This document shows positions 2-39,478 of a stretch of DNA of 64,000 bases, one piece after another. The position numbers and the translations under genes are program-made. The stretch is from Planctomycetota bacterium (lineage in GTDB: Bacteria; Planctomycetota; UBA1135), in assembly GCA_027623295.1 (NCBI GenBank), contig JAQBXR010000007.1, forward strand, positions 43,552 to 107,551, given 5' to 3'. Each line of letters starts with the position of its first letter. The stretch's first letter is position 1. Under the pieces are notes generated by a model that was given only the letters and a program-made list of their open reading frames with translations, was not told where the DNA came from and ran no database searches.

Positions 2-205
2 GGACGGGGCGGCCAAGGCGGCGGCGGGGGACGTGGTGGTCCTCGCGGCGGCGGCCAGGGCCGTGGACGTCGTGAAGAATTTGGGCCAGATCCAAAGCGC
101 CAGAAGAAAGAAGAGTTCGACCCAACCAACCCGTTCTATGTTTTCTTCCAGAAAGAACAGCAAGGTGGCAAGGGCGAGAGGAAAACTAAAGGATCCTCTT
201 CTTAA
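2..205 (+). CDS. 3' end of a gene entering from upstream. It encodes an Arg/Gly-rich (RGG-box) C-terminal tail of the kind found on DEAD-box RNA helicases and some RNA-binding proteins
   Basis: My own frame-2 translation from the window edge reads GRGGQGGGGGRGGPRGGGQGRGRREEFGPDPKRQKKEEFDPTNPFYVFFQKEQQGGKGERKTKGSSS, ending at TAA 203-205. It is absent from the ORF track because no start codon lies inside the window. The parent protein is not visible. Confidence 0.4.
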   Translation, partial: GRGGQGGGGGRGGPRGGGQGRGRREEFGPDPKRQKKEEFDPTNPFYVFFQKEQQGGKGERKTKGSSS

Positions 206-206
206 G

Positions 207-686
207 TTGCTTCAGCATCCACAGGCTGACGCTTTCTTAGAAAGCTACCTCAAAACCCTTCCCGCATCTGAACGGGAAGGGTTTACTTCTTTTAGCGCGG
301 AACACTTTTGTGCGGAGGAAGAGGCTGCAAATGCCTGCGCTGCTTTAGTCCGCGATGGCGTGAAGATGGCTACCTGCAGCATGAAATACTGGTATGAAAC
401 GGAAGGCTTACCGATGCCTGCAGTGGGCCACCTCATGGTGGTTCTGACCTGGGCCGGGGAGCCGAGTTCCATCATTCAAGTTACTGAGGTGAGTGAATGC
501 AGATTCCGCGAGATCACTGCCGAGTGGGCCCTTGCCGAAGGAGAAGGAGATCGGTCTTTGGAGTCTTGGCGGCGGGGGCATCGTGCTTTCTTCGAAAAGG
601 AGTGCGAGCAGATTGGCATGCCCTTTACCGAGGAGGTCTTGCTGGTGCAGGAGCGATTCCGCGTGGTCCATCTGGGGGGCTGTTAG
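207..686 (+). CDS. ASCH-domain protein (YhfF-like)
   Basis: ORF track 33..686. The segment DGVKMATCSMKYWYETEGLPMPAVGHLMVVLTW...ECRFREITAEWALAEGEGDRSLESWRRGHRAFF fits the ASCH/YhfF pattern. The first 58 codons of the ORF are the alternate frame of the upstream RGG tail. The start is therefore more likely TTG 207 (just after the upstream TAA) or ATG 138. Confidence 0.65.
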   Translation: MLQHPQADAFLESYLKTLPASEREGFTSFSAEHFCAEEEAANACAALVRDGVKMATCSMKYWYETEGLPMPAVGHLMVVLTWAGEPSSIIQVTEVSECRFREITAEWALAEGEGDRSLESWRRGHRAFFEKECEQIGMPFTEEVLLVQERFRVVHLGGC

Positions 687-1492: not shown

Positions 1493-3277
1493 ATGATGTG
1501 GGTGCGATGGCGTATTTTGGCCAACCGCATGAGTCGACGCGGAAAAATCAACAGTGTGCTTTTTGCGGTTTTATTGTTGCTCGGCGCGGTTTTATTTGTC
1601 GGAGCGTTCTTTGCGACTTTTCTGGTTGGCAGCGAAATCCTGCCGGACGCAGAACCGATGGAAGTGTGGGGGGCATGGCTTGGCCTAGGCGTTGGCTTTT
1701 TACTCTTCTGGATGATTGGCTTAATGACCGAGTTGAGTCGTTCGGATTCGTTGTCGATTAAGAATCTTTTGCACTTACCGGTTTCTTTGGGCTGGGTTTT
1801 TATTAACAACTACCTGAGTTCTTTCGTTTCACTCAGCATTGCATTCTTTCTTCCGGCCATGCTTGGTTTAGCCTTAGCCATGATCAAGGTCTTCGGCATG
1901 TACATGCTCCTGTGCTTTCCCCTGATCTTTGGGTTCTTCATCCTAGTCACTGCTTTGACCTATCACTTGCGCGGCTGGCTTGCGCGTCTGATGGAGGATA
2001 AACGTAAAGCTAAGAGCATTGTCATGGGGATTAGCTTTGGACTTGTGCTTTTAGTGCAAGCGCCAAACTTTATCAACATGGCGACTAGCGGAAGCCAATT
2101 GGATGGTCGCGTTAAGAAATTTGAGCTACAGAGCAAGGTTAAATCCGCAACGCCAGGACCAAGGCTTGAACAGGCACAGGCCGAACTAGATGCCTTCTTG
2201 GCAGTGGAGGAAATTGAGGAAATGAAATCAGACCGTGTCATGGTCCTCGCCAGTCAAGTCATCCCCTTTGGGTGGTTGCCTTATGGCATGTTTGCCTTGC
2301 ATGGAAAAAGATTTCTCGCAGCATCTTTGTCAATCATGGGTTTCTTTCTGCTTGCCGGCCTCAGTTTGAAGCGTTCCTACCGCACCACCTTACGCGGTAT
2401 TGTGGAAGGAGAGGGGCATGGCGCTGGTGCTAAGAAAAAGAAGGGTTCGCTTGAGCTAAAGAAATCTAAAAAGAAGGCTGGGGGAATGCCTTTCGTAGAG
2501 CGTCGAATCCCATGGACCAGCGACGCCGTTTCAGCCGTCACTTTTTCGAATCTCCGTTCTCTCGTGCGAGCACCGGAATCGAAAATGATGATGCTCGGCC
2601 CCATTATCATGTTCGGCTTTATGGCTATGGGCTTGGTGAAAAGTGACAATCTGGAAAATTACAGAATATGGATGCCAATCATGAGTCTCGGCGCAGCTTC
2701 CATGGGAATGATGAGCGTGAGTCAGGTCATTCAAAACCTATTTGGCTTAGACCGAGCAGGCTTTCGCGCTTATGTTTTGTCTCCAGTGCCACGCAAGCAA
2801 ATTTTGATTGGCAAAAATTTGGCTTCTGCTCCGTTTGGAATGGGGATAGGTTTTATCGCACTTTGCGGCCTTCAATTTTTCATCCCAGTGGACGCAAACC
2901 ACTTTTTTGGCGGGTTCTTTCAGGTCATATCGGCCTTCTTATTGTTCTGTTTGGTGGGCAATTCCATGTCGATCTATGCGCCGGTTCGAATGCGCGAAAT
3001 GGGCAATAAAGGCGTGAGACCAAAGTTCTCGACTTTTGTTTTACAATTCCTTGCGATTATTTTCTATCCCTTGGCGCTGTCTCCGCTGCTCCTGCCGTGG
3101 GGCGTGGAATACATGCTGAATGGAGAAGCTTGGGCGGAGGGGCTTCCGATTTACCTGCTGCTCCAGGCGGTCATGCTTGGCTTAGTGGTCTTGACCTATC
3201 GCTGGTTCCTTGGCCAGCAGGGCGAAATCCTGCAAAGCCGGGAACAGCAAATCCTTGACGTCTTAACCCGCGATTAA
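1493..3277 (+). CDS. Polytopic membrane protein, putative permease partner of the ABC ATPase
   Basis: ORF track 1448..3277 begins at TTG. ATG-ATG at 1493 lies 20 nt after the ATPase stop. The protein has many hydrophobic segments and a Lys-rich loop GAGAKKKKGSLELKKSKKKAGG. I recognised no family motif. Confidence 0.65.
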   Translation: MMWVRWRILANRMSRRGKINSVLFAVLLLLGAVLFVGAFFATFLVGSEILPDAEPMEVWGAWLGLGVGFLLFWMIGLMTELSRSDSLSIKNLLHLPVSLGWVFINNYLSSFVSLSIAFFLPAMLGLALAMIKVFGMYMLLCFPLIFGFFILVTALTYHLRGWLARLMEDKRKAKSIVMGISFGLVLLVQAPNFINMATSGSQLDGRVKKFELQSKVKSATPGPRLEQAQAELDAFLAVEEIEEMKSDRVMVLASQVIPFGWLPYGMFALHGKRFLAASLSIMGFFLLAGLSLKRSYRTTLRGIVEGEGHGAGAKKKKGSLELKKSKKKAGGMPFVERRIPWTSDAVSAVTFSNLRSLVRAPESKMMMLGPIIMFGFMAMGLVKSDNLENYRIWMPIMSLGAASMGMMSVSQVIQNLFGLDRAGFRAYVLSPVPRKQILIGKNLASAPFGMGIGFIALCGLQFFIPVDANHFFGGFFQVISAFLLFCLVGNSMSIYAPVRMREMGNKGVRPKFSTFVLQFLAIIFYPLALSPLLLPWGVEYMLNGEAWAEGLPIYLLLQAVMLGLVVLTYRWFLGQQGEILQSREQQILDVLTRD

Positions 3278-4233
3278 CGGTCACGCTTAAGCATAGCTAC
3301 AGGCACGCCGATGGCTTCTAGCTGTGGCATGACCTCGGCCAGCCAGCGTTTGCCATCTACGCCATAACCTTTGGTTGGCTTGACTTCAGGTAGCTTTTTC
3401 GCCCACCAGGCATTGAACAAATCCATCATCCGTTCGCGGGTTTGCTTGGCGGCTAAAGAGCCTAGCGCAACGGGTAGGTGCTTGCGGTCCGCGCCTTCGC
3501 TGAAACGAAGCTGCACATTCCGGTTGTCAAACTCTAAGGAGTAAGTGGAGCCACTTGGCTCTTCGCCGTGAATCGTGATCAAACGTGGATTCAAAGCGCG
3601 GCGCAGAGGGTCGGCATAACGTTGACGTCCACCTTGGCGATCTAACTCAATGCGTAAAGGTGCATCGCCGGTCAAGCTCATGATGTGGCGCACCGCTTGC
3701 ATCGTAATCGCAAAGTTCGCATGGCCTTTGCCACCAGTGTTCTCAAGCAACTGATTCCACTCACCAGCCGGAACCGCACGTGCGCCAAAGCCAGTGAGGG
3801 TACATCCGTGGGCGTCTAAATCGCGTCGGACCGATGCTGCATCTAAGCGTGCGCGGTCATGCGTAATTTCAGGCACCAAGTCATGAGTCAGCTGCTTAAA
3901 CCAAGGCGCCTGGTGTAGTAAACGCGCATCGCCGGCGGGGGATTCGGTCACCCAGCGATCTAAACTGAAGTCGCTTTCTTGACTGAGTTCGCGAAAGGCA
4001 GCCACCGTCCGGCCCAAGCGTTTGCGTCCATGCGGCCCCTGATGCACCTTCTTCGAATCGTTCAGCCACAGCCGACGTAAATCTTTACGCTCCGGCTTCG
4101 GTGAGGTTGAGGTCGACAGTACATCCCACAAATCCTGTTCCGGACTTTGCACCCGGAACACACTGAAGCCAACCGTGAATGGGCCTACAAAAGGGCCATA
4201 GCCCGCTTCATCAATCCCCGCGAGAAAGGCCAT
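3274..4233 (-). CDS. RNase HII-family protein, long variant
   Basis: N-terminal GIDEAGYGPFVGP (compare the RNase HII motif GIDEAGRGP), LNDSKKV (DSK motif) and a C-terminal ADRKHLPVALGSLAAKQTRERMM block. At 319 aa it is about 100 aa longer than typical RnhB. Confidence 0.6.
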   Translation of the reverse strand: MAFLAGIDEAGYGPFVGPFTVGFSVFRVQSPEQDLWDVLSTSTSPKPERKDLRRLWLNDSKKVHQGPHGRKRLGRTVAAFRELSQESDFSLDRWVTESPAGDARLLHQAPWFKQLTHDLVPEITHDRARLDAASVRRDLDAHGCTLTGFGARAVPAGEWNQLLENTGGKGHANFAITMQAVRHIMSLTGDAPLRIELDRQGGRQRYADPLRRALNPRLITIHGEEPSGSTYSLEFDNRNVQLRFSEGADRKHLPVALGSLAAKQTRERMMDLFNAWWAKKLPEVKPTKGYGVDGKRWLAEVMPQLEAIGVPVAMLKRDR

Positions 4234-4238
4234 GGAAT

Positions 4239-5204
4239 CTAGTTGGAAGCGGTTTCAGCTTTGACTTGCAGTGATGGTATTTTGCGCATGACGAAGTACA
4301 CCAATAGCGCAACCGCAAAGGTTGCAATGCCGACCATCTGCGAGGTGGAGAGCAGCAGATGCGGGAAGGCTTGCGGGTCGCCCTGAATGAGCATGTCGCG
4401 ATAAGCCTGTAAATCAATCACCCGACCTGCGGCATCCTTGACGCCAGCGTTGTTGAGGTAAATCGCAACATCTTCCGGGCTGGAACCTTCTTTGTAGATG
4501 CCGCCGCGCGCCACCATGTCAAAGCGGAAGTACTCGACGATAAAACGCAACATGGCATAACCCATGATGAGCAGCAGTGAGACCTGGCCGTGGAACTTTT
4601 TGCGCTTCAGCATCATCAGGCCGAAGAAGAATAGGCTCAAAGCTTTCGCCGACATGTACAGCTGCGTCGGGTGGACCGGCACGGTGGACAGGGTGGGCTC
4701 AAAAGCTGAGCCAACAGCGAGTGGCTCCGGGAAGGTGATAGCCCAAGGCACATCGGTGGGGGCGCCGTAGTCATCGCCCACTGCCAAGCAGCCAAGCCGG
4801 CCAATCGCCTGGCCCAGGAAGCCGGCGGTCAAACCATAATCCAAGCTCTGCCATCCGGGCATGCCGAGTCGCTTCGCCTTCCAGACTCCGAGCACTACAG
4901 CTAGAATGAGGCCGCCATACATGACCAGCCCGCCTTCCCAAACTTTGAGAATGTCCGCAGGGTGGCTCGCGTAATGGTCGATGTTGACCAGCACAAAGGC
5001 GAGGCGAGCGCCGAGGATCACGCCAATCAAAACCCACCAACTCACATCTGCGAACCGCGCCGGGTCTAGCTCTTTGTTGGCTCCATAACGCGACGCCAGC
5101 TTCGAGCCGGTGCCAACGCCAACCAGGAATCCCAATGCCACTAGCAGGCCAAAGGACCGTAGGGGAAAATCGAGGAAGGGAATAGTGAACAGTTCAGGCC
5201 ACAC
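4239..5204 (-). CDS. lgt: Prolipoprotein diacylglyceryl transferase
   Basis: GGLVMYGGLI, GRLGCLAVGDDYG, PWAITF and VHPTQLY blocks in a multi-TM protein. GTG start. It carries a C-terminal extension. Confidence 0.85.
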   Translation of the reverse strand: MWPELFTIPFLDFPLRSFGLLVALGFLVGVGTGSKLASRYGANKELDPARFADVSWWVLIGVILGARLAFVLVNIDHYASHPADILKVWEGGLVMYGGLILAVVLGVWKAKRLGMPGWQSLDYGLTAGFLGQAIGRLGCLAVGDDYGAPTDVPWAITFPEPLAVGSAFEPTLSTVPVHPTQLYMSAKALSLFFFGLMMLKRKKFHGQVSLLLIMGYAMLRFIVEYFRFDMVARGGIYKEGSSPEDVAIYLNNAGVKDAAGRVIDLQAYRDMLIQGDPQAFPHLLLSTSQMVGIATFAVALLVYFVMRKIPSLQVKAETASN

Positions 5205-5230: not shown

Positions 5231-6043
5231 TTGACCGAGTCCGAGAACCAGAAACCACCCCTTTACGAAGGGCCACAACGCCTCTTTTTTGAAGGGCGCT
5301 ACCGGAAGTTGGTGCGCGACCTTCCGCAGACCATTTTTTTCTGCCCGGGTTGCAAAGGGAAGGGGTGCAATACCTGTGAAGGAAATGGCCGCTTGTCTAA
5401 GGATTCGGTGCAGGAACTCATCGCACGAGTTGCCATGCCTCGCTTTAAGGCACGGCGCAATAGGTTCCATGGTGCTGGGCGCGAGGACATGAACGTGCGT
5501 ATGCTCGGCAACGGACGCCCCTTTGTTTTTGAAATGCAGAAGGCCAAGCGCAGAGATGTCGATTTGGTGGACCTGGCCGCGGAAATCAAACGCCGCTCCG
5601 AAGACCGTATTGAGCTGCTCGATCTGAAGCTCTGCGAACGTTTCCGCGTGGCCGAGGTCAAGGAAACCCACTGTGAAAAGGAATACCTCGCGCGCGTGCG
5701 TTTTGACGATGGCGTCGTGGTCGATGCCGCTGCCGTAGAGCAAAAACTACAGGCCTTACTCGAAGGCCCACGCCTAGATCTTCAGCAGAATACGCCGCAA
5801 CGCGTGGCACATCGCCGAGCCGACAAGGCGCGCGAGCGCTGGATTGACATCACCGCGTGGGAGCGCGATGGCGACGACTGGATGATTTCCATCTTGTCGC
5901 AACACGGCACCTACATCAAAGAAGCGATTTCCAGCGATGGCGGGCGTACGGTGCCGTCGATTGCGGAGCTGCTTGAGGGCGCTTGTACTTGTGTGGAGTT
6001 AGATGTGCTGAACATCTTGGTGCCTCCAGAGCCTACTGATTGA
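5231..6043 (+). CDS. pus10: Pus10-like tRNA pseudouridine synthase (short form: zinc ribbon plus catalytic domain)
   Basis: CPGCKGKGCNTCEGNG (CxxC-x4-CxxC). FHGAGREDMNVRMLGNGRPFVFEM matches the Pus10 catalytic block AGREDVDVRxLGxGRPF. The C-terminal RVAHRRADKARERWI...GTYIKEAISSDGGRTVPSIAELLG...ELDV is also Pus10-like. TTG start, with no nearby ATG. Confidence 0.65.
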   Translation: MTESENQKPPLYEGPQRLFFEGRYRKLVRDLPQTIFFCPGCKGKGCNTCEGNGRLSKDSVQELIARVAMPRFKARRNRFHGAGREDMNVRMLGNGRPFVFEMQKAKRRDVDLVDLAAEIKRRSEDRIELLDLKLCERFRVAEVKETHCEKEYLARVRFDDGVVVDAAAVEQKLQALLEGPRLDLQQNTPQRVAHRRADKARERWIDITAWERDGDDWMISILSQHGTYIKEAISSDGGRTVPSIAELLEGACTCVELDVLNILVPPEPTD

Positions 6044-6196: not shown

Positions 6197-6694
6197 CTAA
6201 AGCGAAACGCCAGTAATCGTAGCCTGACTCACCATGGTGCCGTCTTCGCGGATCACCTGGCCTTCCCACTTAAAGTAAGGGCGGCGCTTGCTAGATTTCC
6301 GAATCTTGCCGGCAACCCAAAGCTTCTCGCCGGCTCCCACTGGTTGGCGGAAACGTACGCCCTCGAGGGCTCCAAAGCCCATGAACACGCCAAGGTCTAA
6401 TTCCAATTCGTGGTGTGCATGAATCGATGCGATTTGCGCCATGCACTCAATTTGCAACACGCCCGGGAAGAGTGGGCGTCCAGGAAGGTGCCCGCGCTCC
6501 CAAAACTCGCCCGGCTGCAAAAGCCGCGACCCCACCACCAAGTTGCCCGGCAAATCCAAGTGCAAAATGGAATCTAACTGCAGAAACTCGAAGCGTTGCG
6601 GGTTGCGCAACATGCAATCTTCTGCAGTCATGAAGACCTTATCGAGCGGGAAATCCTTTGGGTCAATGAAGGGGACGGAGGAGGTCACGCACAA
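6197..6694 (-). CDS. FabZ/FabA-like hotdog-fold 3-hydroxyacyl-ACP dehydratase
   Basis: GHLPGRPLFPGVLQIECMAQ (compare FabZ HFPxxPxMPGVLxxEAxAQ), then GVRFRQPVGAGEKL. TTG start at 6694; an alternative ATG is at 6631. Confidence 0.6.
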   Translation of the reverse strand: MCVTSSVPFIDPKDFPLDKVFMTAEDCMLRNPQRFEFLQLDSILHLDLPGNLVVGSRLLQPGEFWERGHLPGRPLFPGVLQIECMAQIASIHAHHELELDLGVFMGFGALEGVRFRQPVGAGEKLWVAGKIRKSSKRRPYFKWEGQVIREDGTMVSQATITGVSL

Positions 6695-11061: not shown

Positions 11062-11106
11062 CAGGCGAGAATAAACTATGTGCCCCCGGTACGTGCACTA
11101 AACATC

Positions 11107-13605
11107 ATGATTCGTCGACCTCTCCCTTTCGCTGCGCTGGCCCTCTTGTCGGGCCTCGCCGCAATCCCTTTATTCGCCCACACCTCCGGCTCCGGCGATT
11201 CTGCTCCAAACACGAGCGGTTCTTCTGAGCAGAAGGCGCAGCGCGTGGTGGTCCTCGGCATGGACGGCATGGATGCCGAAGTGACTGGCGACTGGATGGA
11301 TGCCGGTGAGCTGCCGAACTTTCAGCGGCTCCGCGAGGGCGGCACCTTTGCACCACTCATGCCAGCCAACCCTGCGCAGTCTCCGGTTTCTTGGGCAACC
11401 TTGAACACGGGTGTGAACCCGGGCAAGCACGGCATTTTTGACTTTGTGGGTATTGCACGCGGAAGCAAGAGCAGCCCGGTTACGCCCAACATTGGCTTTC
11501 AAGAGGCTAAGTACTTCACGGCAGAAGAGCTGGGCATGAGTCCAGCCGGCGGCGATTCGAACTACGCAATTATGGGTGGAGGTTTGGTTCTCGGTTTGGT
11601 GCTTTTACTCGGCATTGGTCGGTTGAATAAGCCTGCCGGTTTGGTGATTGGTCTGGCGGTTGCCGGTGGCGCCGTGTTCTTCGGACAGGGCGGTGATGCC
11701 GTGTTGCCAGAGAAGTTCAAAGATTACGAAAGCTCGAACCACGCAAAAAATTATTGGGAGTCGCTCGATGAAAACGGGATTGAGTTCCGTGGACAGGGCA
11801 CGATTGTGGCTTACCCAACGCAAGAGTTGAAGCACGGCAAGTTGATTGCCGGTCTTGGAGCTCCCGACGCAAAAGGTGGCTTGAACTCAAGCGCGATTTA
11901 CACCACCGCAAAGGAACGAAAAGGACGACGTAAAAACTACGACTCTCTTCCTGCAACGGTGATTGAAGAAACCGAAGACTTCAACGTTCGGGTGGGCAAA
12001 AACGCCGGTACTACGCGCGTATTTGAGTTTGTGAAGGAAGGCAACGTGCTTAAGTCGCACCTTTACGGCCCAGCAAACTCCATCCTGAAGAGTAGCTTGA
12101 CCACCGAGCGCAATGAATTGCAGGAAAGTGACAGTGACCCAGAACGCCTTAAGCAGCTAGTTGCTTTGGTAGGCGATGGACGTCGTAGTTTTGGCAACTC
12201 CGACCTTCTGGACACATCCGTTCCGATCTCTGCAACTTGGACCAAAGGCGCTTCGGTGGACTTGACCGTTGCTGAGGTTGCGCAAAACATCGCGCTGAAC
12301 CATTGGAGCGATTTCTATCAAGTGGAATTCCCATGGCACCCTTCTTACAGCACTTGGGCTTTGGTCCGTTTCTGGGTAGAAGAGCGTGACGGTGAATTGG
12401 AAATCTTTGCATCGCCATTGCAGATCGACCCGCAACATCCGACTCCTGGCAGCCGCATCAGCTGGCCGGCAAGCTTCGCCGCGGACATCGAATCGCGGAT
12501 TGGACGCTTTGAAACTTTGGGTTGGGCGTGTCAAACCCACGCCGTGAAAGATGCAGAGCTTTCAGACGACGCCTTCTTGGCAGACATCGAGTTCACTCTC
12601 GGATGGCGTACTAAGATGCTGAAAGATGCCGTCGAGCAGGGCGACTGGAAAGTGTTGTTCCACTTCTTCGGAACGCCGGACCGCATTTTTCACATGCTTA
12701 TGCGTCACATGGATCGGCTGCACCCACAGTTCGACGAAGCCGAGGCAAACCGCATGGTTCATTACTTCGGTCAAGACTTTGCACTCAAAGACAGTGGCTT
12801 GGTCATTTACAAAGAGATGGACAAGATTGTCGGCTACGTGCTGGATGAAGTCCTAGCGGAAGACGATGTCATGATGATCGTTTCTGACCATGGCTTCGAT
12901 AGCTTCCGCCGTCAAGTAGATTTGAACGCTTGGTTGGCACAAGAAGGCTTCATGGCTTTGGCCAATAAGTCTGCACTTGGCATTCCAAAGACCGCAAAGG
13001 AAATGAGCAGAAGTGCGCTGAATTTCATTGATTGGCGCGAGTCTCAGGCCTACTCGGTGGCCATCGGCAAAATCTACCTCAACCGGAAGGGGCGTGAATC
13101 TAAAGGCATCGTGACCGATGAAGATGCCGACGCCGTGCTCCAGGAAATCAGTGATCGCCTTTACGCGATGACCGATCCAGATTCGGGCGAGAAGGTTGTA
13201 AAGAAGGTTTATCTACGCGATGACCTTTACAGCGGACCTTATGTGCACCGTTCGGAAACCGGTGGCGAAGGCGCTGCGGAAATCACCATTGACTTCTACC
13301 CGGGTTATCGCGCTTCTTGGTCGGTGACCGGTGGTGGAATCACTTTGGCCGATGGTGAGAACGAAGATGGCGACAAGATTGCTATTCCGGGTGCCTTCAT
13401 CTATGACAACGATTACGCATGGTCGGGTGACCACTGTGGAGTCGACATCATGGAAGTGCAGGGCATCTTCTTCAGTAACAAGCAGTTGGCCTTGCCCTCT
13501 GGAGATGAGTGGTACGACGCCACGCACCTTGCTCCAACAGTGTTGGACTTGCAGGGCGTTGCGATCCCTGAAAATTACGATCGCGCCCCGCTACAACTTA
13601 AGTAA
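11107..13605 (+). CDS. Alkaline-phosphatase-superfamily enzyme, type I phosphodiesterase/nucleotide pyrophosphatase-like (large paralog 1)
   Basis: VVVLGMDGMD, AQSPVSWATLNTGVNPGKHGIFDF, MIVSDHGFDSF and YAWSGDHCG. Signal peptide MIRRPLPFAALALLSGLAAIPLFA from ATG 11107 (the ORF-track GTG is at 11080). An internal hydrophobic hairpin reads IMGGGLVLGLVLLLGIG...AGLVIGLAVAGGAVFFG. Confidence 0.8.
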   Translation: MIRRPLPFAALALLSGLAAIPLFAHTSGSGDSAPNTSGSSEQKAQRVVVLGMDGMDAEVTGDWMDAGELPNFQRLREGGTFAPLMPANPAQSPVSWATLNTGVNPGKHGIFDFVGIARGSKSSPVTPNIGFQEAKYFTAEELGMSPAGGDSNYAIMGGGLVLGLVLLLGIGRLNKPAGLVIGLAVAGGAVFFGQGGDAVLPEKFKDYESSNHAKNYWESLDENGIEFRGQGTIVAYPTQELKHGKLIAGLGAPDAKGGLNSSAIYTTAKERKGRRKNYDSLPATVIEETEDFNVRVGKNAGTTRVFEFVKEGNVLKSHLYGPANSILKSSLTTERNELQESDSDPERLKQLVALVGDGRRSFGNSDLLDTSVPISATWTKGASVDLTVAEVAQNIALNHWSDFYQVEFPWHPSYSTWALVRFWVEERDGELEIFASPLQIDPQHPTPGSRISWPASFAADIESRIGRFETLGWACQTHAVKDAELSDDAFLADIEFTLGWRTKMLKDAVEQGDWKVLFHFFGTPDRIFHMLMRHMDRLHPQFDEAEANRMVHYFGQDFALKDSGLVIYKEMDKIVGYVLDEVLAEDDVMMIVSDHGFDSFRRQVDLNAWLAQEGFMALANKSALGIPKTAKEMSRSALNFIDWRESQAYSVAIGKIYLNRKGRESKGIVTDEDADAVLQEISDRLYAMTDPDSGEKVVKKVYLRDDLYSGPYVHRSETGGEGAAEITIDFYPGYRASWSVTGGGITLADGENEDGDKIAIPGAFIYDNDYAWSGDHCGVDIMEVQGIFFSNKQLALPSGDEWYDATHLAPTVLDLQGVAIPENYDRAPLQLK

Positions 13606-15155: not shown

Positions 15156-16307
15156 ATGATTGCTCCGCACGGTGGAAACCTGATCAACCGCGTCGTCGAA
15201 GGTGGCGAGCGCGAATCCTTGCTCGCAAAGGCAGCCTCTTTGCCGGCTCTCACCCTCAACTCCCGCGAAACCAGCGATTTTGAAATGATCGCCACTGGCG
15301 CCATGAGTCCTTTGGAAGGTTTCATGGGAGAAGCCGATTACCACGGTGTCGTGGAAAACATGCACCTCGCATCGGGTCTCGCTTGGCCACTACCTGTGGT
15401 TCTTGCAGCAAAGGATGGCGAGTCCGCAGTTGCGGGTTCTGAGTACGCCCTGAAAGGCGAAGACGGAACCATTCTTGGTGTCATCGCCGTAGACAGTGTC
15501 TACAGCCCTGACAAGAAGAACGAGCTAGTGAAGTGCTATCAGGGTGACGAAGATCACCCAGCATGGGGCTACCTCGCATCCATCGGTGACACCTACATTG
15601 GTGGTCAAATCACCATGGCAAATCTGCCTGCTTACGAGAAGCACAACGATTTCCGCCTCACTCCAGTGCAAACCCGCGCTGCCTTCGCTGAGAAGGGTTG
15701 GAACAGCATTGTTGCTTTTCAAACACGTAACCCAATTCACCGGGCTCACGAATACCTAACCAAAGTGGCACTTGAGCAGACCGATGGTCTCTTGATTCAC
15801 CCATTGGTTGGCGACACCAAGGCAGATGACATTCCATCGGATACCCGCATGGAGTGCTATCACGCACTGCTGAACAAGTACTACCCACTCGATCGCACCA
15901 TGCTCGGCGTTTACCCGCAGGCCATGCGTTACGGCGGTCCACGTGAGGCGATTCTGCACGCGCTTTGCCGTCAGAACTACGGTTGTACTCACATCATCAT
16001 TGGTCGCGATCACGCTGGCGTAGGTTCTTACTACGGCACCTTCGATGCCCAACAGATTTTCAACCAGTTTCCCGATGGAGAGATTCTCATCGAGACCTTA
16101 CTTTTTGAGCATGCTTTTTACTGCAAGTTGACCGGCGGCATGGCTTCCACGAAGTCCAGCCCAGCCACTAAAGACCAGAAGGTCTTCCTTTCCGGTACCA
16201 AGGGGCGTGAAATGCTAGCAAATGGCGTACGTCCGCCAGCTGAGTTCACGCGTCCTGAAGTCGCCGACATCCTGATCGCTTCCTACGCTCAACCGGCGCA
16301 GGCTTAG
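15156..16307 (+). CDS. sat: Sulfate adenylyltransferase (ATP sulfurylase)
   Basis: QTRNPIHRAHEYL and IIGRDHAGVG motifs at a homo-oligomeric Sat length (383 aa). Confidence 0.92.
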   Translation: MIAPHGGNLINRVVEGGERESLLAKAASLPALTLNSRETSDFEMIATGAMSPLEGFMGEADYHGVVENMHLASGLAWPLPVVLAAKDGESAVAGSEYALKGEDGTILGVIAVDSVYSPDKKNELVKCYQGDEDHPAWGYLASIGDTYIGGQITMANLPAYEKHNDFRLTPVQTRAAFAEKGWNSIVAFQTRNPIHRAHEYLTKVALEQTDGLLIHPLVGDTKADDIPSDTRMECYHALLNKYYPLDRTMLGVYPQAMRYGGPREAILHALCRQNYGCTHIIIGRDHAGVGSYYGTFDAQQIFNQFPDGEILIETLLFEHAFYCKLTGGMASTKSSPATKDQKVFLSGTKGREMLANGVRPPAEFTRPEVADILIASYAQPAQA

Positions 16308-16336
16308 TCCCTCAAAACATCGCAAGCTAGAGACTC

Positions 16337-17248
16337 ATGTTTGGATTTGGTAAAAAACGCGAGAACAACCATCTGTTCATCATCACACTCGACTCGTGCC
16401 GCTTTGACTCGTTCATGGCGGCCGAGCCGGAGAACATCGCCAAATTGTGCGGTGGTCTCAGTAATGTTGAAAAGCGTTATTCCTACGCTGGATGGACCGC
16501 TCCGTCTCACTACAACCTCCTGACCGGCTTAGTGCCGCACAGTAGTCCTACCGAGGTTTACGCTTCGGAGTACTACAAAGAGGATCTCTACAAGTTCAAG
16601 GATCGCCTTGGTGTGGAGGAGGCTGGCTTTGAAGCCATGATTCCGCATCTATGGCTTCCGGCTTACATGAAGAAAAAGGGCTATGAAACTCATGCTCTTG
16701 TTTCTTTGCCGGTTTTGAACCCTGCTACCGGGATTAACCGCGACTTTGACACTTTCAAACTCATGCCAAAGCACAACGACATGTTGGCTATGTTGGATGA
16801 TATGGAAGCACACAAGAAGCGTGATTCCAAGGGTCTTAAGGGCAACACTCCACAGTTCTACTTGATGAACGTGGGTGAAACTCACTATCCATATGGCTTG
16901 CCCGATGAGGACAAGAACGATTTGCCGCACATCTCTGGTGTGAATGGTATTTTCAAGAAGCTGGATAAGCAGATTGGTGACGACGGCGTCTTGATCTCGG
17001 ACAAAGAGTCCGGCGATTTCATGGACGCAGACATCATCGAGAAGTGCCGCCAGCGCCAAATCAACACGGTGAAGTATCTCGATCAAGAGGTCTTCCCACG
17101 GTTTTACGACCTGCTACCGAAAGATAGCTGGGTCATTGTTACTGCTGACCACGGTGAACTGTTCGGTGAAGGTGGCTACTTTGGCCACGGCCCGATCATG
17201 CACGAAAAGTGTTTCGAGGTTCCCTTCCTCGAAGGCAAACTCAAATAA
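16337..17248 (+). CDS. Small cytoplasmic alkaline-phosphatase-superfamily enzyme (NPP/type I phosphodiesterase-like, Thr nucleophile)
   Basis: IITLDSCRFD (metal-ligand Asp). GWTAPSHYNLLTGLVP resembles the NPP motif TFPNHYSIVTGLYP. VIVTADHGELFGEGGYFGHG is also present. There is no signal peptide. The gene lies 29 nt after sat and 30 nt before cysC. Confidence 0.7.
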   Translation: MFGFGKKRENNHLFIITLDSCRFDSFMAAEPENIAKLCGGLSNVEKRYSYAGWTAPSHYNLLTGLVPHSSPTEVYASEYYKEDLYKFKDRLGVEEAGFEAMIPHLWLPAYMKKKGYETHALVSLPVLNPATGINRDFDTFKLMPKHNDMLAMLDDMEAHKKRDSKGLKGNTPQFYLMNVGETHYPYGLPDEDKNDLPHISGVNGIFKKLDKQIGDDGVLISDKESGDFMDADIIEKCRQRQINTVKYLDQEVFPRFYDLLPKDSWVIVTADHGELFGEGGYFGHGPIMHEKCFEVPFLEGKLK

Positions 17249-17278
17249 TCATCCCCGTTTAACAAGAAGATTAGACCC

Positions 17279-17830
17279 ATGTCTGACCATAAAGGATTCG
17301 TACTCTGGTTCACCGGCCTATCCGGTTCTGGCAAGTCCACCCTCTCTCGCATGATTGAAGGTGAATTGCGTAAGCGCGACTGCAAGGTCGAAGTTCTCGA
17401 TGGCGATGAAGTTCGCGAGAACCTCTCCAAAGGCCTCGGTTTCTCCAAGGAGGACCGCGACACCAACGTGCGTCGTATCGGCTACGTTGCCAAGCTGCTT
17501 AGCCGCAATGGTGCTATCTGCATCACTGCTGCAATCTCTCCATACAAGGACGTGCGTGACCAGTGTCGCGCGATGAACCGTCACTTCGTTGAAATCTACG
17601 CAGAGTGCTCGATTGAGGAGCTCACTCGCCGCGACGTCAAGGGTCTTTACGAAAAGGCTTTGTCTGGTGAGATCAAGCACTTCACCGGCATTTCGGATCC
17701 TTACGAGGCTCCTGAGAAGGCGGAAGTCACGATCAACTCTGAAACTCAGTCAGAAGAGGAATCGCTCAAATCCATCATGGATTACCTCGAAGGTCAGGGT
17801 TACATCCCGGCCGTCGCAGCAAACGCATAG
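17279..17830 (+). CDS. cysC: Adenylylsulfate (APS) kinase
   Basis: P-loop FTGLSGSGKSTL, LDGDEVR and the SPYKDVR block. 183 aa. Confidence 0.92.
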   Translation: MSDHKGFVLWFTGLSGSGKSTLSRMIEGELRKRDCKVEVLDGDEVRENLSKGLGFSKEDRDTNVRRIGYVAKLLSRNGAICITAAISPYKDVRDQCRAMNRHFVEIYAECSIEELTRRDVKGLYEKALSGEIKHFTGISDPYEAPEKAEVTINSETQSEEESLKSIMDYLEGQGYIPAVAANA

Positions 17831-17911: not shown

Positions 17912-20077
17912 ATGAAGCGGTCCCGCAGATTCCTTCTCCCCCTCGCTGTTCTATTTGCATGGCTCAGCGCCCCCGACCCCGCCTCGGCCTACATTGGCCC
18001 CGGTGCGGGTTTCGCATTCCTGTCAGGTGGCTTGGTCCTCATTGGATCCCTGTTCCTGGCGGTCGGCATCCTGCTGATCTACCCATTGAAGATGATCTTT
18101 CGGATTGCCACTGGCGCCGGAAAGATTAAAGGCGATATCAAACGCCTCGTCATCATCGGTTTCGATGGCATGGACCCTCGCCTTGCGCAGCGGTTCATGG
18201 ACGAAGGTCGCATGCCCAATATGAAGGCGTTAGCAGAGGAGGGGAGTTTCTCTCCACTGCAAACGGCATACCCTTCCATGTCGCCGGTTGCGTGGTCGTC
18301 GTTCTCGACAGGTGTAGATGCTTCGCGGCACAACATCTTCGACTTTATTACGCGCGATCCTTGCACGTACATGCCGATCCTTTCCAGCACCGAGATCACC
18401 TCGGCTGAGAAGGCTTTGGTGAAGATTGGCAAGTTGGAATTGTTCAAGCGGCCGAGCTCAAGTATCAAGTTGTTGCGTAAAGGAACTCCTTGGTGGAAGA
18501 CTCTGGGTGATAAGAAGATCTTTTCCAACATCATTCGCGTGCCGATTACCTTCCCACCGGAAGAGCATCATGGCGTGTTGCTGAGTGGCATGTGTGTTCC
18601 TGACTTGAAGGGAACCCAAGGCAGTTTCACTTTTTGGACTAGCGATGAATCCCTCACTGGCCCCGATGCCGGCGGCGATGTGTTGTTAGTAGGCAAAAAT
18701 GGTAACGCCTATCGTTGTCCAATCACTGGCCCGCCCGATCCATCGCAAGCGCAGGCTACGCCAATGCGCGTGCCGATGAAGGTTGAGGTTCTGGTAGACG
18801 GCGAGAAGCTTCGCCTGACCATTGGCGCCAAAGGCAAGCAGCAAATCGTAAACCTGGGCGTCAAGGAATACTCCGAGTGGATTACTCTCGAGTTCAGGGC
18901 TGCCAAAGGCAAAGCCAAGGTCACCGGAATCGCTCGCTTCTACTGCATGGGCACCGATCCTGAGTTTGGCCTCTATATGACGCCAATCCAGATCGATCCA
19001 GCAAACCCAGCGATGCCGATTTCGCATCCAACGGTTTACTCGATCTACCTTGCTAAAAAGCACGGTCCATTTTCCACGCTTGGACTTGCCGAAGATACTT
19101 GGGCATTGAACGAACGCGTCATTGATGAGGAAGCGTTCTGGAAGCAGGCGCTAAACATCTGGGATGAGCGTCGTTTGCAGTTGTTTGATTCGCTGCAGAA
19201 TACTCCAAAGGGTTCCATCGTCTGTGTCTTCGATGGTACCGACCGCGTGTCACACATGTTCCACCGTTACTTGGACCCAAGTCACCCTGCCAACGAAGGC
19301 AAGGATACCGAGTGGGGCAAGGACAAGGTCGCCGAGATTTATTCCATCGCCGATGGTTTGGTCGGAGACGTGCGCAAGAAACTGAACCCGAAGAAGGATC
19401 GTTTAATGATCATCTCGGACCATGGTTTCTGTCAGTTCAAGCGCGGAGTGAACCTCAACGCTTGGTTGCGTGACAATGGTTACTTGGTCTTGAAGGACGA
19501 TGCACCAGTCGATGAAGCCTCCGGCAAGCCCACTTCGCGTGACTGGCTGAGGGATGTCGATTGGACTAAAACTAAAGCGTTTGCGCTTGGCCTTACCGGC
19601 ATGTTCATCAACCGCAAAGCCCGCGAGCGCGATGGCATTGTGGAAGAAGGCGCTGAGTTGGAAGCCTTGAAGGCAGAAATCATTGCCAAGCTTTCCGCCG
19701 TGAAGGATCCCAAAGACGGTGAGTTGATCTTCAAGGAGGTCTTCGATGCCGGCAAAATCTTTACCGGACCTTACGTCTTCCAAGCTCCTGACTTGTTCAT
19801 GGGCTATAAGCGTGGTTACCGCAACTCATGGGATTGCGCGACGGGCGCTTGCCCGGTCGAGGTGTTCTCGGATAACACCAAGTCGTGGTCGGGTGACCAC
19901 TGCATTGATCCGCGCGAGGTTCCAGGAGTCATTTTCTCCGATACTCCGCTCAACACCGATACGCCAAACCTAATGGACCTCGGCCCAACTGCCCTGCGTC
20001 TGTTCGATGTTGACGTGCCAAAATACATGCAAGGCCAACCGTTGTTTGGTGAACGCAAAGAAAAGGTGAAGTCATGA
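17912..20077 (+). CDS. Alkaline-phosphatase-superfamily enzyme, type I phosphodiesterase/NPP-like (large paralog 2)
   Basis: VIIGFDGMDP, SMSPVAWSSFSTGVDASRHNIFDF, MIISDHGFCQF and KSWSGDHCID. The N-terminus has two hydrophobic segments (FLLPLAVLFAWLSA and AYIGPGAGFAFLSGGLVLIGSLFLAVGILLIYPL). Confidence 0.8.
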   Translation: MKRSRRFLLPLAVLFAWLSAPDPASAYIGPGAGFAFLSGGLVLIGSLFLAVGILLIYPLKMIFRIATGAGKIKGDIKRLVIIGFDGMDPRLAQRFMDEGRMPNMKALAEEGSFSPLQTAYPSMSPVAWSSFSTGVDASRHNIFDFITRDPCTYMPILSSTEITSAEKALVKIGKLELFKRPSSSIKLLRKGTPWWKTLGDKKIFSNIIRVPITFPPEEHHGVLLSGMCVPDLKGTQGSFTFWTSDESLTGPDAGGDVLLVGKNGNAYRCPITGPPDPSQAQATPMRVPMKVEVLVDGEKLRLTIGAKGKQQIVNLGVKEYSEWITLEFRAAKGKAKVTGIARFYCMGTDPEFGLYMTPIQIDPANPAMPISHPTVYSIYLAKKHGPFSTLGLAEDTWALNERVIDEEAFWKQALNIWDERRLQLFDSLQNTPKGSIVCVFDGTDRVSHMFHRYLDPSHPANEGKDTEWGKDKVAEIYSIADGLVGDVRKKLNPKKDRLMIISDHGFCQFKRGVNLNAWLRDNGYLVLKDDAPVDEASGKPTSRDWLRDVDWTKTKAFALGLTGMFINRKARERDGIVEEGAELEALKAEIIAKLSAVKDPKDGELIFKEVFDAGKIFTGPYVFQAPDLFMGYKRGYRNSWDCATGACPVEVFSDNTKSWSGDHCIDPREVPGVIFSDTPLNTDTPNLMDLGPTALRLFDVDVPKYMQGQPLFGERKEKVKS

Positions 20078-22218
20078 AGCACACGCTAAAACTTGCCGCC
20101 GTCTTGGTTGCTGGAATGAGTCTTCTAGGTTGTGGTGAAAAACAATCCGAGACTCGTGTGGTCGTGTTCGGTGTGGACGGATTAGATCCGGAAATGCTGC
20201 AAGAACGCGTCGACAGGGGCATGATGCCTAACTTCAAGAAGTTGTTGGATAACGGCTCGACTTTCGCGCCGCTGCAAACTTCTTGGCCTCCGCAATCGCC
20301 AGTCGCATGGTCGAACTTCATCTCGGGTGTGAATCCGGGTAAGCATGGTTTGTATGACTTCATTCATGCGGACTACACGCAGAAAAACTACGGTGTGAAG
20401 TCTTCCATGGCGGAAACTACCCCAGTGGGGCGTGACATCACCTTGTTTGGTTATGATATTCCGTTGACCGGGGGAGTCACTTCTAGCACGCGTAAGTTCC
20501 CAGCCTTCTGGGAAGTCCTGGCCGATGCAGAGGTGCCGACCTACGTGCACCGCATGCCGGCAAGTTTTCCGCTTACCGAAACCACTGCTACGGTATTCCC
20601 GGACATGGGGACGACGGATATGGTCGGCGCAATGTCTGGAATTTCTTATCTTTGGACCGAAAATGAGTTCAAGGGCAAGAGTTTGGTGGGAGAGTCTTAT
20701 CGCGTGGAGAAAGTAGAACTCAACCGTCGTAATGAGGACATGTGGCTTCAGTGGACCAAGCTTTACGGACCAGCAGAAACCATTCTCAATGTCGATGACC
20801 TCAAGCATCAAATCCACGAGGCGATTGAGGCCGGCAACAACGAAAAGGCCAATGCACTGCAAAAGGAGATCGAGCGTAAGCAAGAAGTCTCCGTTCCAGT
20901 CGCGCTGATGGTTGACAACACCGGCGATGCCCCGCAACTCGCGGTGCAAATCGAAGATCAATACGCCACCGCCGGATTAGGTGAGTGGAGTAACTGGGTG
21001 CAGGTGGAATTCTCGGTGCTTGGCGGCCTGATGCCGCTTACCGGATACACCCGTTTCCGCTTTATGTCTGCGCAACCATTCGAAGTTTACGCCCTGCCGA
21101 TTCAGTTCGATCCTTATGCGCCGGCAACGGAGATTTCCATGCCGCCAGAAGCAAGTGCTGAACTCGCCGAAGCGATTGGCCCCTATATGGTGCAGGGATT
21201 CGCCGATGCCTACAAGTCCTACAAAGCCGAGTTGTTGGATACTTCTGGCTTTATCAACCAGTCCGACATGGCTCTGGATGAACGCACCAAAATGATGCAC
21301 TACGGTCTCGATCAAATCGAGGAGACCGGCGGACTCTTGTTCCTCTACACGGGGTCATTGGACATGCGCTGTCACATGTTGTGGCACACCTCCGATGACA
21401 TACACCCGCACCAAGAGGAAGCTGGTGAGTACTTAGGCGTTCCTTACGACGAGCAGATTGATCGCATTTACATGCAGGTCGACACCATGCTCGGCGAAAT
21501 GGTCGCACGCATTGAAAAGATGGAAGTGGAGTCCGGTGAGAAAATCGAACTCATCGTCATGTCGGACCACGGCTTTGCGCCTTTCCATCGCAAGATGCAC
21601 ATCAATGATTGGTTGGTGCAAGAGGGTTACTTGGTGCTGAAAGATGGCATCACCGAAACTAGTGACCTCAATCTTGATCTCGATGCCGATGGCCATCCGA
21701 TTAAAGGTTCTGGCCCAGTGGATTGGTCGAAAACCACGGCTTACTGCATTGGCTTTAACGGCATCCTGCTGAACCGCGTAGAGCGCGAAGGCGAAGGCAT
21801 CGTTACCGACGAGGAAGTGGAGGCCTTGCTCACCGAGATTACCGGCAAGTTGCTCGCACTCGAAGATGGCGGAGTGCCAGTCCTCACCCGCGTGCTTCCA
21901 GCAACCGAAGTCTTCCAGGGGCCAGCCGAAGTCATGAAGTTTGCCCCGGACCTGCAACTCGGATTTAATACCGGCTTTGGCGCTTCTGATGAATGCGCGA
22001 TTGGCGGTGTCGTCGGTGGGGGAGAATTCCTCGTCGACAATGATTCCCGCTGGTCGGGATCGCACCTCATGGATCCTGAACTCGTTCGGGGCACCATCAT
22101 CTCTACGTCTGGCAAAACCTTCTCGAAGGACCCAGCGCTAGAAGATATCACTGCAACCCTCTACAGTCTGTTCAACGTGGCTCCCCCCGAGGGCACCGAC
22201 GGACTACCTCTTTACTAA
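20074..22218 (+). CDS. Alkaline-phosphatase-superfamily enzyme, type I phosphodiesterase/NPP-like (large paralog 3, lipoprotein)
   Basis: ATGA overlap with paralog 2. The lipobox signal is VLVAGMSLLGC-GE. Motifs VVVFGVDGLDP, PQSPVAWSNFISGVNPGKHGLYDF, IVMSDHGFAPF and SRWSGSHLMD are present. Confidence 0.8.
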   Translation: MKHTLKLAAVLVAGMSLLGCGEKQSETRVVVFGVDGLDPEMLQERVDRGMMPNFKKLLDNGSTFAPLQTSWPPQSPVAWSNFISGVNPGKHGLYDFIHADYTQKNYGVKSSMAETTPVGRDITLFGYDIPLTGGVTSSTRKFPAFWEVLADAEVPTYVHRMPASFPLTETTATVFPDMGTTDMVGAMSGISYLWTENEFKGKSLVGESYRVEKVELNRRNEDMWLQWTKLYGPAETILNVDDLKHQIHEAIEAGNNEKANALQKEIERKQEVSVPVALMVDNTGDAPQLAVQIEDQYATAGLGEWSNWVQVEFSVLGGLMPLTGYTRFRFMSAQPFEVYALPIQFDPYAPATEISMPPEASAELAEAIGPYMVQGFADAYKSYKAELLDTSGFINQSDMALDERTKMMHYGLDQIEETGGLLFLYTGSLDMRCHMLWHTSDDIHPHQEEAGEYLGVPYDEQIDRIYMQVDTMLGEMVARIEKMEVESGEKIELIVMSDHGFAPFHRKMHINDWLVQEGYLVLKDGITETSDLNLDLDADGHPIKGSGPVDWSKTTAYCIGFNGILLNRVEREGEGIVTDEEVEALLTEITGKLLALEDGGVPVLTRVLPATEVFQGPAEVMKFAPDLQLGFNTGFGASDECAIGGVVGGGEFLVDNDSRWSGSHLMDPELVRGTIISTSGKTFSKDPALEDITATLYSLFNVAPPEGTDGLPLY

Positions 22219-38346: not shown

Positions 38347-39090
38347 TTATTCCTTGGGCGCATTCAGGTCAATGCCCAAACGTTTCGCCAACTTCTTTGG
38401 CATACGCGGACGGCGCGCATGCGGATCGGGGCGCAGGGTTTCCCAAGGCTCTGGCGGGTTCTCGATCCAATGCAGGAAGCGATCCGGATCCTTGCCGCCA
38501 CCTAAACGCTGATACCAATCTTTGCGTAACTCGTGTCGATCTTGCTCGGAAAGCGAGCCATGCGCTTCGGGGCAGACATCGAACAAACGCTGCAGGATGA
38601 GGCCAGTGGCGACCGAGAGGTTAAAGGACTCGGTAAAGCCGAACATAGGGAGGAAGATGCGCTTTTCCGAGGCCTCAAGCATGATCTTGCTCACGCCATC
38701 AGATTCGCGGCCGATGACCACGGCAAGGCGTTCGGGCAGGTTGTGCAACTCTTCACGGGTGGCCGGAATCGCATCTCCACCTAAATCGGTTGCGTAAATA
38801 GTCCAACCTTCCGCAAGCAGGGTGTCGCGGCAGGTTTCTGAATCCGGGAAGCTGCGGACCTTAAGCCAGCCATCGGCACCTTTGGTCACCGACTTATGAA
38901 ACTGCTCCGCGGTTTCTGGGTCGTGATCGACTAACCAAACATGTACCAAGCCGAAGGCTTCTGCGGTACGCAATACCGCGGCATGGTTAAAAATGTCGGT
39001 GCAGCGCTCTAAAACTAAAAGGAAACGTCCGCAGCGTTGGCGCAATACCGCCTCAGCCCGACGCAACCTGCGCGGCGCTTCCTCAGTCAT
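38347..39090 (-). CDS. SpoU/TrmH-family RNA 2'-O-methyltransferase with a C-terminal extension
   Basis: NHAAVLRTAEAFGL, LAVVIGRESDGVS and IPMFGFTESFNLSVATGLILQ. ATG at 39090 (MTEEAP...) overlaps the rbfA stop by 8 nt. The ORF-track start at 39168 lies inside rbfA. Confidence 0.8.
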   Translation of the reverse strand: MTEEAPRRLRRAEAVLRQRCGRFLLVLERCTDIFNHAAVLRTAEAFGLVHVWLVDHDPETAEQFHKSVTKGADGWLKVRSFPDSETCRDTLLAEGWTIYATDLGGDAIPATREELHNLPERLAVVIGRESDGVSKIMLEASEKRIFLPMFGFTESFNLSVATGLILQRLFDVCPEAHGSLSEQDRHELRKDWYQRLGGGKDPDRFLHWIENPPEPWETLRPDPHARRPRMPKKLAKRLGIDLNAPKE

Positions 39091-39478
39091 TGTCCCGCTC
39101 AGGATCGGCGGGGGCGACGGCAGGAGTCCGGTCTTCTGGTGGAAGAACACTGCGCAAGACTTCTTCAATCCGCGCTGCAGCAGCCAAACCTTTGTCGTAT
39201 TCGAACTGCAAGTTTGGTGCAGAGCGAATGTTGATTTCGCGCGCTACCTGGCGACGTAAGAATCCGTTCGCGCTTTTGAACATATGTTCCACGCGGCTCC
39301 TCTCCTTGATGTCCAACACCGACCACCGCACCTTGGCAACCGTGAGGTCGCTGGTGATGGTGACTCCGGTAATGGTTACAAAGCCAATGCGCGGGTCGCG
39401 AATCTCGTGGATGATCATCTCCGAGATTTTCTGCTGAATGCGTTTCGCAATCTGCTTCTGACGCCGCTCACTGGCCAT
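39083..39478 (-). CDS. rbfA: Ribosome-binding factor A
   Basis: RIQQKISEMIIHEIRDPRIGFVTITGVTITSDLTVAKVRWSV. It follows infB. Confidence 0.9.
   Translation of the reverse strand: MASERRQKQIAKRIQQKISEMIIHEIRDPRIGFVTITGVTITSDLTVAKVRWSVLDIKERSRVEHMFKSANGFLRRQVAREINIRSAPNLQFEYDKGLAAAARIEEVLRSVLPPEDRTPAVAPADPERDND

Follow-up and report, generated by a model that had tools for sequence, protein, structure and literature searches.

The gene at positions 5231..6043 (+) of the 64-kb stretch of DNA analyzed here (the window) encodes a 270-aa protein that is a member of the Pus10 family of pseudouridine synthases through its catalytic domain. This minimal Pus10 is a conserved form and not a truncation, and it is a real, under-recognized bacterial variant of a known family, new in its architecture and phyletic range; the enzyme family and its chemistry themselves are well known. 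On balance, its sequence features favor a working stand-alone Pus10 catalytic domain that was ancestrally acquired and modifies the T-loop of tRNA, probably in place of TruB.

The gene starts with a TTG codon, and its translation contains both strings on which the earlier note had based its proposal of a Pus10 enzyme, namely the hallmark block FHGAGREDMNVRMLGNGRPFVFEM and the C-terminal segment YIKEAISSDGGRTVPSIAELL..ELDV. Searches with the Pus10 family HMMs, which that note had proposed, gave scores above the curated cut-offs: PF21238 (Pus10_C) matched with an E-value of 2.7e-57 and 194.4 bits against a cut-off of 27, residues 19-262 covering profile positions 1-231 of 232, and the NCBIfam equivalog TIGR01213 reached 265.7 bits (cut-off 200), its match being confined to profile positions 160-401 of 402. 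The sole significant sequence match in the PDB was human PUS10's catalytic domain (2v9k, 3e-26). An AlphaFold2 model was built from a 70-sequence alignment and had a mean pLDDT of 90.4 and a pTM of 0.83. Its top match in Foldseek was again 2v9k (E 8e-22, TM 0.72, rmsd 3.3 A, 32% identity), followed by TruA (E 4e-7) and by Cbf5 and TruB (E 2.5e-6 or weaker). In Pfam and NCBIfam, the query had zero matches to the TruB family (TIGR00431 / PF01509, TruB_N, HxGxLD), and the only related profile match was that of Cbf5, NF003280, at an E-value of 0.042 and far under its cut-off. Profile, solved-structure, and fold searches thus agree on the Pus10 identity and exclude other pseudouridine synthase families; an assignment by profile searches to a different family, for which the earlier note had allowed, was not observed.

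The protein had been described as a minimal form that lacks most of the THUMP-containing N-terminal domain, and in fact the whole zinc-ribbon and THUMP region is missing. The N-terminal accessory domain, which combines a THUMP-related fold with a Cys4 zinc site, is absent from the query, TIGR01213 positions 1-159 being unmatched, and PF22023 (Pus10_THUMP_arc) had no match in the query but does match full-length controls. In terms of TIGR01213 coverage, the full-length archaeal form (P0186; 3-402) comprises the zinc ribbon, Pus10_THUMP_arc (PF22023), and the catalytic domain, the intermediate archaeal form (P0129, located in a RadA/PcrB/diphthamide-synthase context; 68-401) comprises THUMP and the catalytic domain, and the short bacterial form represented by the query (160-401) comprises the catalytic domain only. 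The archaeal intermediate proteins (~320-350 aa; P0129, P0124 from Ca. Diapherotrites) are thus also N-terminally reduced and near to the query, but they have lost the zinc ribbon only and have kept THUMP (TIGR01213 ~62-401), whereas the query has lost both. Short forms also occur among archaeal sequences; these were found to be mostly fragments of longer proteins, and their clusters include 346- and 396-aa members.

An HMM of 413 positions was made from 54 full-length archaeal Pus10 sequences and searched on the stop-to-stop frames of all fetched loci. About 40 independent contigs of the short clade matched HMM positions 162-411 of 413 only, whatever the size of the upstream frame. A cryptic or frameshifted N-terminal domain was rejected, because the stop-to-stop frames of the ~40 loci had no match to positions 1-160. 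This sharp boundary, reproduced in ~40 loci, indicates that the minimal form is a defined architecture and not the result of a mis-called start or of truncation. In the window, there is an in-frame TGA at 5186-5188, 15 codons 5' of the TTG start, and the gap between the open reading frame and the divergent lgt gene measures 26 bp, so that no space is left for an N-terminal domain of Pus10. Compensation for the lost RNA-binding domain by charge was considered and rejected, since there is no rise in positive charge: in this clade, the catalytic domain has a mean net charge of +6.3, compared with values of +8.6 to +10.3 for forms that carry THUMP.

From GRYRK..PQT to the C-terminus, the query runs colinear with the catalytic domain of archaeal Pus10 (TIGR01213; M. 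jannaschii, P. furiosus), at ~40-45% identity. Both have the Cys4 cluster in the forefinger loop, H-x3-R-E-D in the active-site loop, His-Arg in the thumb loop, and the GTYIKE and LD motifs. In an alignment of 70 clade members with 53-94% identity to the query, C38, C41, C46, C49, H80, R84, E85, D86, and Y152 are invariant in all 70, as are H194, R195, R196, Y228, K230, and L257; for I229, conservation is 90% or higher. These residues were mapped to MjPus10 through P0186, a full-length archaeal homologue that shares the MjPus10 numbering at C227, C238, H269, R273, and D275, and the residues invariant in the clade map onto MjPus10 residues of experimentally shown importance (PMC3753934). In the active-site loop H80-G-A-G-R84-E-D86 (5468..5488, +), D86 corresponds to the catalytic Asp, D275, R84 to R273 at -2, and H80 to H269 at -6; the latter position is occupied by Lys in Thermococcales, whose Pus10 makes pseudouridine 55 only (PMC3753934). 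Y152 corresponds to the core Tyr, Y339, and the thumb-loop residues H194-R195-R196 (5810..5818, +) are aligned to the archaeal thumb-loop His-Arg, with H194/R195 corresponding to H376/R377. Within Y228-I229-K230 of the GTYIKE motif (5912..5920, +), I229/K230 correspond to I412/K413, a core hydrophobic residue and Lys, and L257 corresponds to the core Leu, L440. Unlike archaeal Pus10, which has GREDxD, the query reads GREDMN (G83-R84-E85-D86-M-N88), with Asn for the second Asp, and the same is seen in 18 of the 121 clade members; the MjPus10 D277A mutant retains both activities in vivo (PMC3753934).

The earlier note had also drawn attention to a CxxC-x4-CxxC motif upstream of the catalytic block and had taken it for a zinc ribbon. 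The motif is indeed present as C38-PG-C41-KGKG-C46-NT-C49, reading CPGCKGKGCNTC (codons at 5342..5377, +) and made up of two CxxCxGxG repeats, but it is not the zinc ribbon of the N-terminal domain. It is the Cys4 cluster located in the forefinger loop of Pus10, forms part of the catalytic domain, and is shared with full-length archaeal Pus10; it should not be read as what remains of the N-terminal ribbon. The segment C38-C49 can be aligned with C227-C238 of P0186 residue by residue, and the first Cys and the catalytic Asp are 48 residues apart in both proteins. Of 150 diverse relatives, nearly all have the same double CxxC, located upstream of the catalytic Asp by no more than 70 residues, and full-length relatives possess it plus two N-terminal CxxC pairs. 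The N-terminal zinc site of MjPus10 is made up of C31/C34/C106/C109 (PMC3753934). The C227-C238 region of P0186 corresponds to the forefinger segments ffl1/ffl2 of MjPus10, and it was shown that deletion of these segments abolishes pseudouridine 54 activity but spares pseudouridine 55 activity (Joardar et al., PMC3753934). Judged by its motif, the Cys4 cluster of the query is a presumed Zn site. Human PUS10 (2v9k), although providing the nearest structure for the catalytic domain of the query, lacks the CxxCxGxGCxxCxGxG insertion (an alignment gap) that the query has, and it carries a large N-terminal THUMP-containing domain.

The minimal Pus10 is carried by more than 120 sequence clusters and ~40 independent contigs of MAGs with a Planctomycetota label. 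All of the best 120 clusters (90% identity) have lengths of 239-339 aa and contain Pus10_C only, and every cluster among them for which an organism is given is labeled Planctomycetota or Planctomycetes. Most carriers are MAGs, the contigs that bear the gene reach 7.06 Mb, and the gene is present in three GTDB-representative MAGs. Near-complete genomes with a minimal Pus10 gene include GCA_016719295.1, to which the 7.06-Mb contig (JADKAF010000001.1) belongs, GCA_002748355.1, and the MAGs from which L001 and L002 are derived. The clade to which the protein belongs is thus widespread, and no other function is known for it; membership in a widespread bacterial clade of known different function, combined with the presence of a canonical truB, had been named as an outcome that would speak against the Pus10 proposal. 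Placement relative to archaeal sequences, also proposed in the earlier note, separated the short bacterial clade as monophyletic in 100/100 neighbor-joining bootstraps. Archaeal intermediate forms appeared as its sister group in 31/100, which is weak support. By distance, the nearest relatives include archaeal intermediate forms, one of which is from DPANN.

The gene is situated in a clearly bacterial context, as the window contains lgt, nusA-infB-rbfA, LPS genes (LPS heptosyltransferase and Kdo kinase), Lon, and BatA/MoxR/DUF58. Its divergent neighbor is lgt, encoding prolipoprotein diacylglyceryl transferase (4239..5204, -; PF01790, 1.3e-51), next to an RNase HII-like gene (3274..4233, -; a weak PF01351 match, 2e-9), and a convergent gene for a FabA/FabZ-like dehydratase lies downstream (6197..6694, -; PF07977, 4.6e-16). 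Among 42 loci of the short clade, lgt adjoins Pus10 in 29, and the RNase HII-like and FabZ-like genes were found in 25 and 28, respectively. This synteny persists down to ~47% Pus10 identity, and the RNase HII-like gene is also present in locus L005. On the 7.06-Mb contig, the genes around Pus10 encode an ECF sigma factor, SpoIID, RuvB, and TGT. For pairs of genes that are apparently on the same contig, as judged by an identical length of the longest contig, Pus10 and RbfA have diverged from the window to a similar degree (69% for Pus10 vs 69% for RbfA in one case and 69% vs 64% in another). The GC and GC3 of the Pus10 gene equal those of the neighboring host genes, and a recent horizontal transfer was rejected on this ground. 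Taken together, monophyly, synteny, RbfA-like divergence, and host-like GC argue for one ancient acquisition followed by vertical inheritance under purifying selection, and the ancestor of the lineage most likely acquired the gene from an archaeal-type Pus10.

A second bacterial clade (P0152, P0407, P0164, P0167, and P0238) comprises proteins of 340-404 aa that match TIGR01213 over ~77-399 and have kept THUMP. The neighboring genes encode Rho, GidB/RsmG, MscS, FeoAB, and acyl-CoA dehydrogenase, and all members with an NCBI name are labeled Planctomycetota. P0152, P0407, and P0164 were monophyletic in 100/100 bootstraps and were joined to the short clade in 0/100. These data show that at least two bacterial Pus10 clades exist, and the THUMP-bearing proteins of the second indicate that bacterial Pus10 is broader than the minimal form.

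The minimal Pus10 most likely functions by pseudouridylating the T-loop of tRNA without any domain other than the catalytic one, and we infer its substrate and modified position from the sequence. In the proposed mechanism, the thumb loop (H194/R195/R196) and the Cys4-stabilized forefinger loop (C38-C49) would pinch the T-loop, the target uridine would be flipped out with the aid of R84 and/or H80, and D86 would isomerize the flipped uridine to pseudouridine 55. Without THUMP, the enzyme would touch neither the acceptor stem nor the CCA end, comparable to TruB, which reads mainly the T-arm. In the case of wild-type MjPus10, the smallest substrate that suffices for both activities is a 17-mer T stem-loop (PMC3753934), and the CCA end is not required by human PUS10 (PMC9957541). 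Searches of the 64-kb window with Rfam and for tRNAs found none, and only one tRNA was identified in related loci, a tRNA-Ala with the T-loop UUCGACU (U54-U55-C56-G57-A58, canonical). Action of the catalytic domain alone is plausible because the 17-mer suffices, the CCA end is dispensable, and the T-loop of the tRNA-Ala of this lineage is standard. The loss of THUMP could nevertheless be costly, since many weakened MjPus10 mutants are inactive on the bare T stem-loop, from which it was concluded that nucleotides outside the T-arm stabilize binding (Joardar et al., PMC3753934). The minimal Pus10 may also make pseudouridine 54, because determinants of the dual specificity of archaeal enzymes are kept: besides the long forefinger loop, it has R84, Y152, and, at -6, a His.

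Bacterial TruB is the presumed functional analogue of the minimal Pus10, being a compact enzyme that reads the T stem-loop and acts on the same T-loop; it differs in that it belongs to another pseudouridine synthase family, has no forefinger loop, and has an HxGxLD active site and a C-terminal PUA domain, and its TM score to the query model is ~0.4. In the window, rbfA (39083..39478, -; PF02033, 4.5e-29) is the last conserved gene of nusA-infB-rbfA, following nusA (42229-43317, -) and infB (39487-42225, -). As the earlier note had pointed out, the usual truB slot after rbfA is filled by a different gene, which encodes a SpoU-family methyltransferase (38347..39168, -; PF00588, 1.2e-24) that scores under the TrmH and RlmB cut-offs. 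The same pairing of rbfA with SpoU, in which stop and start codons overlap, is also found in L009 and L010, and L011 has a protein kinase gene after rbfA; neither the window nor any of these three loci from related genomes has truB there. The outgroup L012, from an unrelated bacterium (RbfA 38% identity), has the classical rbfA-DHH-truB arrangement. A Pfam sweep of the 64-kb window revealed no TruB, no further pseudouridine synthase, and no THUMP protein. A tblastn search with the TruB of L012, which gave 630 bits against itself as a control, had no match in ~197 kb and then in ~430 kb of lineage DNA, and the sampled lineage DNA (about 0.7 Mb) is a small, non-random part of genomes of ~5-7 Mb. 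These operon-slot and tblastn negatives fit a loss of TruB but are not decisive. Given the absence of truB from the operon slot and from the sampled DNA, the minimal Pus10 probably stands in for TruB in this lineage. A further-reaching version, which we put forward tentatively, is that the whole lineage discarded TruB, possibly along with the m5U54 methyltransferase, and that a THUMP-less, archaeal-derived Pus10 modifies the T-loop to give pseudouridine 55 and possibly 54.

A TruB encoded elsewhere in the genome might instead make pseudouridine 55, in which case the minimal Pus10 would be an additional enzyme with a more restricted task, such as the formation of pseudouridine 54 in tRNAs, either all or some of them, or modification of a T-loop-like site in another RNA. 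We consider this division of labor rather unlikely. The conservation of the MjPus10 determinants for pseudouridine 54 (the long forefinger loop with its four Cys, together with R84, Y152, and a His at position -6) would agree with it, as would the situation in human cells, where TRUB1 and PUS10 coexist (PMC9957541, PMC7912444); human PUS10 makes pseudouridine 54. However, the conserved operon slot of truB lacks this gene in four lineage genomes, no TruB was found in the roughly 0.7 Mb of sampled DNA, and pseudouridine 54 is unreported in bacterial tRNA (PMC6380271), all of which speak against an extra enzyme.

Dependence of the catalytic domain on a separately encoded RNA-binding partner, either a split-off THUMP-like protein or another one, for contact with the acceptor stem appears improbable. 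The aid that MjPus10 receives from nucleotides outside the T-arm (PMC3753934) makes such a partner conceivable, and L004 and L005 have, immediately upstream of Pus10, a conserved ORF of ~130 aa (29% identity, E 2e-16). This ORF was rejected as a general THUMP partner, as its product resembles a receiver (CheY-like) domain and not THUMP, and neither the window nor the rest of L001-L012 contains a counterpart. No THUMP protein emerged from the Pfam sweep of the window either, and the conserved neighbors, lgt and the RNase HII-like and FabZ-like genes, are not such RNA-binding partners. That the gene is a decaying remnant, or lies on an archaeal contig mis-binned as bacterial, is effectively refuted: the protein is far shorter than canonical Pus10 and its carriers are mostly MAGs, but its catalytic residues are invariant over a deep clade, its boundary recurs at ~40 loci, its composition equals that of the host, and bacteria-specific genes are located on the same contigs (lgt in the window and 29 loci, and those listed above for the 7.06-Mb contig).

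As this clade has lost the THUMP and zinc-ribbon domain in nature, it offers a way to gauge the role of this domain in tRNA recognition. A compact Pus10 of 270 aa could also serve structural work with RNA; according to a 2025 review, the human PUS10 structure is available in the apo form only, and none is RNA-bound (PMC12710931). If TruB is truly absent, a tRNA-modification enzyme that is nearly universal in bacteria would have undergone non-orthologous displacement in this lineage. Pseudouridine 54 could then enter bacterial tRNA, pseudouridine 55 would be made there in the archaeal style, and the Pus10 catalytic domain would be sufficient alone in vivo.

Textbooks place Pus10 in archaea and eukaryotes only. 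Publications from 2019 (PMC6380271), 2021 (PMC7912444), 2023 (PMC9957541), and 2025 (PMC12710931), including three reviews, describe it as absent from Bacteria, which according to them use TruB for pseudouridine 55. A literature search for Pus10 in combination with Planctomycetes found no relevant paper. The proteins of the clade are already named 'tRNA pseudouridine(54/55) synthase Pus10' by NCBI PGAP and JGI.

Besides the minimal, catalytic-domain-only form encoded in the window, a second bacterial Pus10 clade was found, whose proteins measure 340-404 amino acids and have retained the THUMP region and lost the N-terminal zinc ribbon (L013:9001-9810, L014:9001-10050, L016:7001-8032, and L017:7001-8215). 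The surroundings of these genes are bacterial, namely, GidB/RsmG, MscS, FeoAB, acyl-CoA dehydrogenase, HEAT-repeat proteins, and Rho, the latter immediately 5' of Pus10. A grouping of this clade with the minimal one was never found in bootstraps. Archaeal Pus10 proteins of about 320-350 amino acids (P0124, P0126, and P0129, the last at L007:8402-9415) also keep THUMP and lack the N-terminal zinc ribbon. Of these, one belongs to Ca. Diapherotrites, and another has RadA, PcrB, and diphthamide synthase as neighbors in a marine archaeal setting. A reduced N-terminus of Pus10 is therefore not confined to Bacteria.

The window Pus10 carries a CxxCxGxGCxxCxGxG unit (5342-5377), which is a conserved forefinger-loop unit of archaeal-type Pus10, with homologous positions in the archaeal proteins. 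It resembles the repeats of DnaJ-type zinc fingers and, unlike archaeal-type Pus10, human PUS10 is devoid of it. The Pus10 papers covered by the analysis treat this region solely as "ffl1/ffl2" (Joardar et al., PMC3753934) and do not mention metal binding.

Two distant members of the minimal clade share a conserved ORF of about 130 amino acids immediately 5' of Pus10 and on the same strand (L004:9537-9929 and L005:9559-9942; 29% identity, E value of 2e-16), which looks like a receiver (CheY-like) domain. No such receiver-like ORF is present upstream of Pus10 in the window, where lgt takes that place. The 319-amino-acid product of the gene at 3274-4233 on the minus strand has only weak and partial matches to RNase HII (Pfam, 2e-9; far under the NCBIfam cut-offs). 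Since 25 related loci conserve this gene as a neighbor of lgt and Pus10, it may encode a divergent nuclease of the RNase HII-like type.

The customary truB slot is occupied by a SpoU-family methyltransferase gene coupled to rbfA, both in the window (38347-39168, minus strand) and in two related loci (L009:8437-9198 and L010:8404-9153); it scores below the TrmH and RlmB cut-offs. In these two loci the beginning of the methyltransferase gene and the end of rbfA share 8 nt. Because the longest ORF for this gene in the window overlaps rbfA by 86 nt, its true start is probably further downstream.

At the window edge, a gene for an ASCH-domain protein (33-686, plus strand; a PUA-like putative RNA-binding fold, with no NCBIfam assignment) lies beside an ABC ATPase and a 609-amino-acid membrane protein. 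Furthermore, a sulfate-activation cluster (15156-17830) comprising ATP sulfurylase, a sulfatase-like gene, and APS kinase is flanked by three large paralogous type I phosphodiesterase/alkaline-phosphatase-superfamily genes (11080-13605, 17912-20077, and 20074-22218, all on the plus strand).
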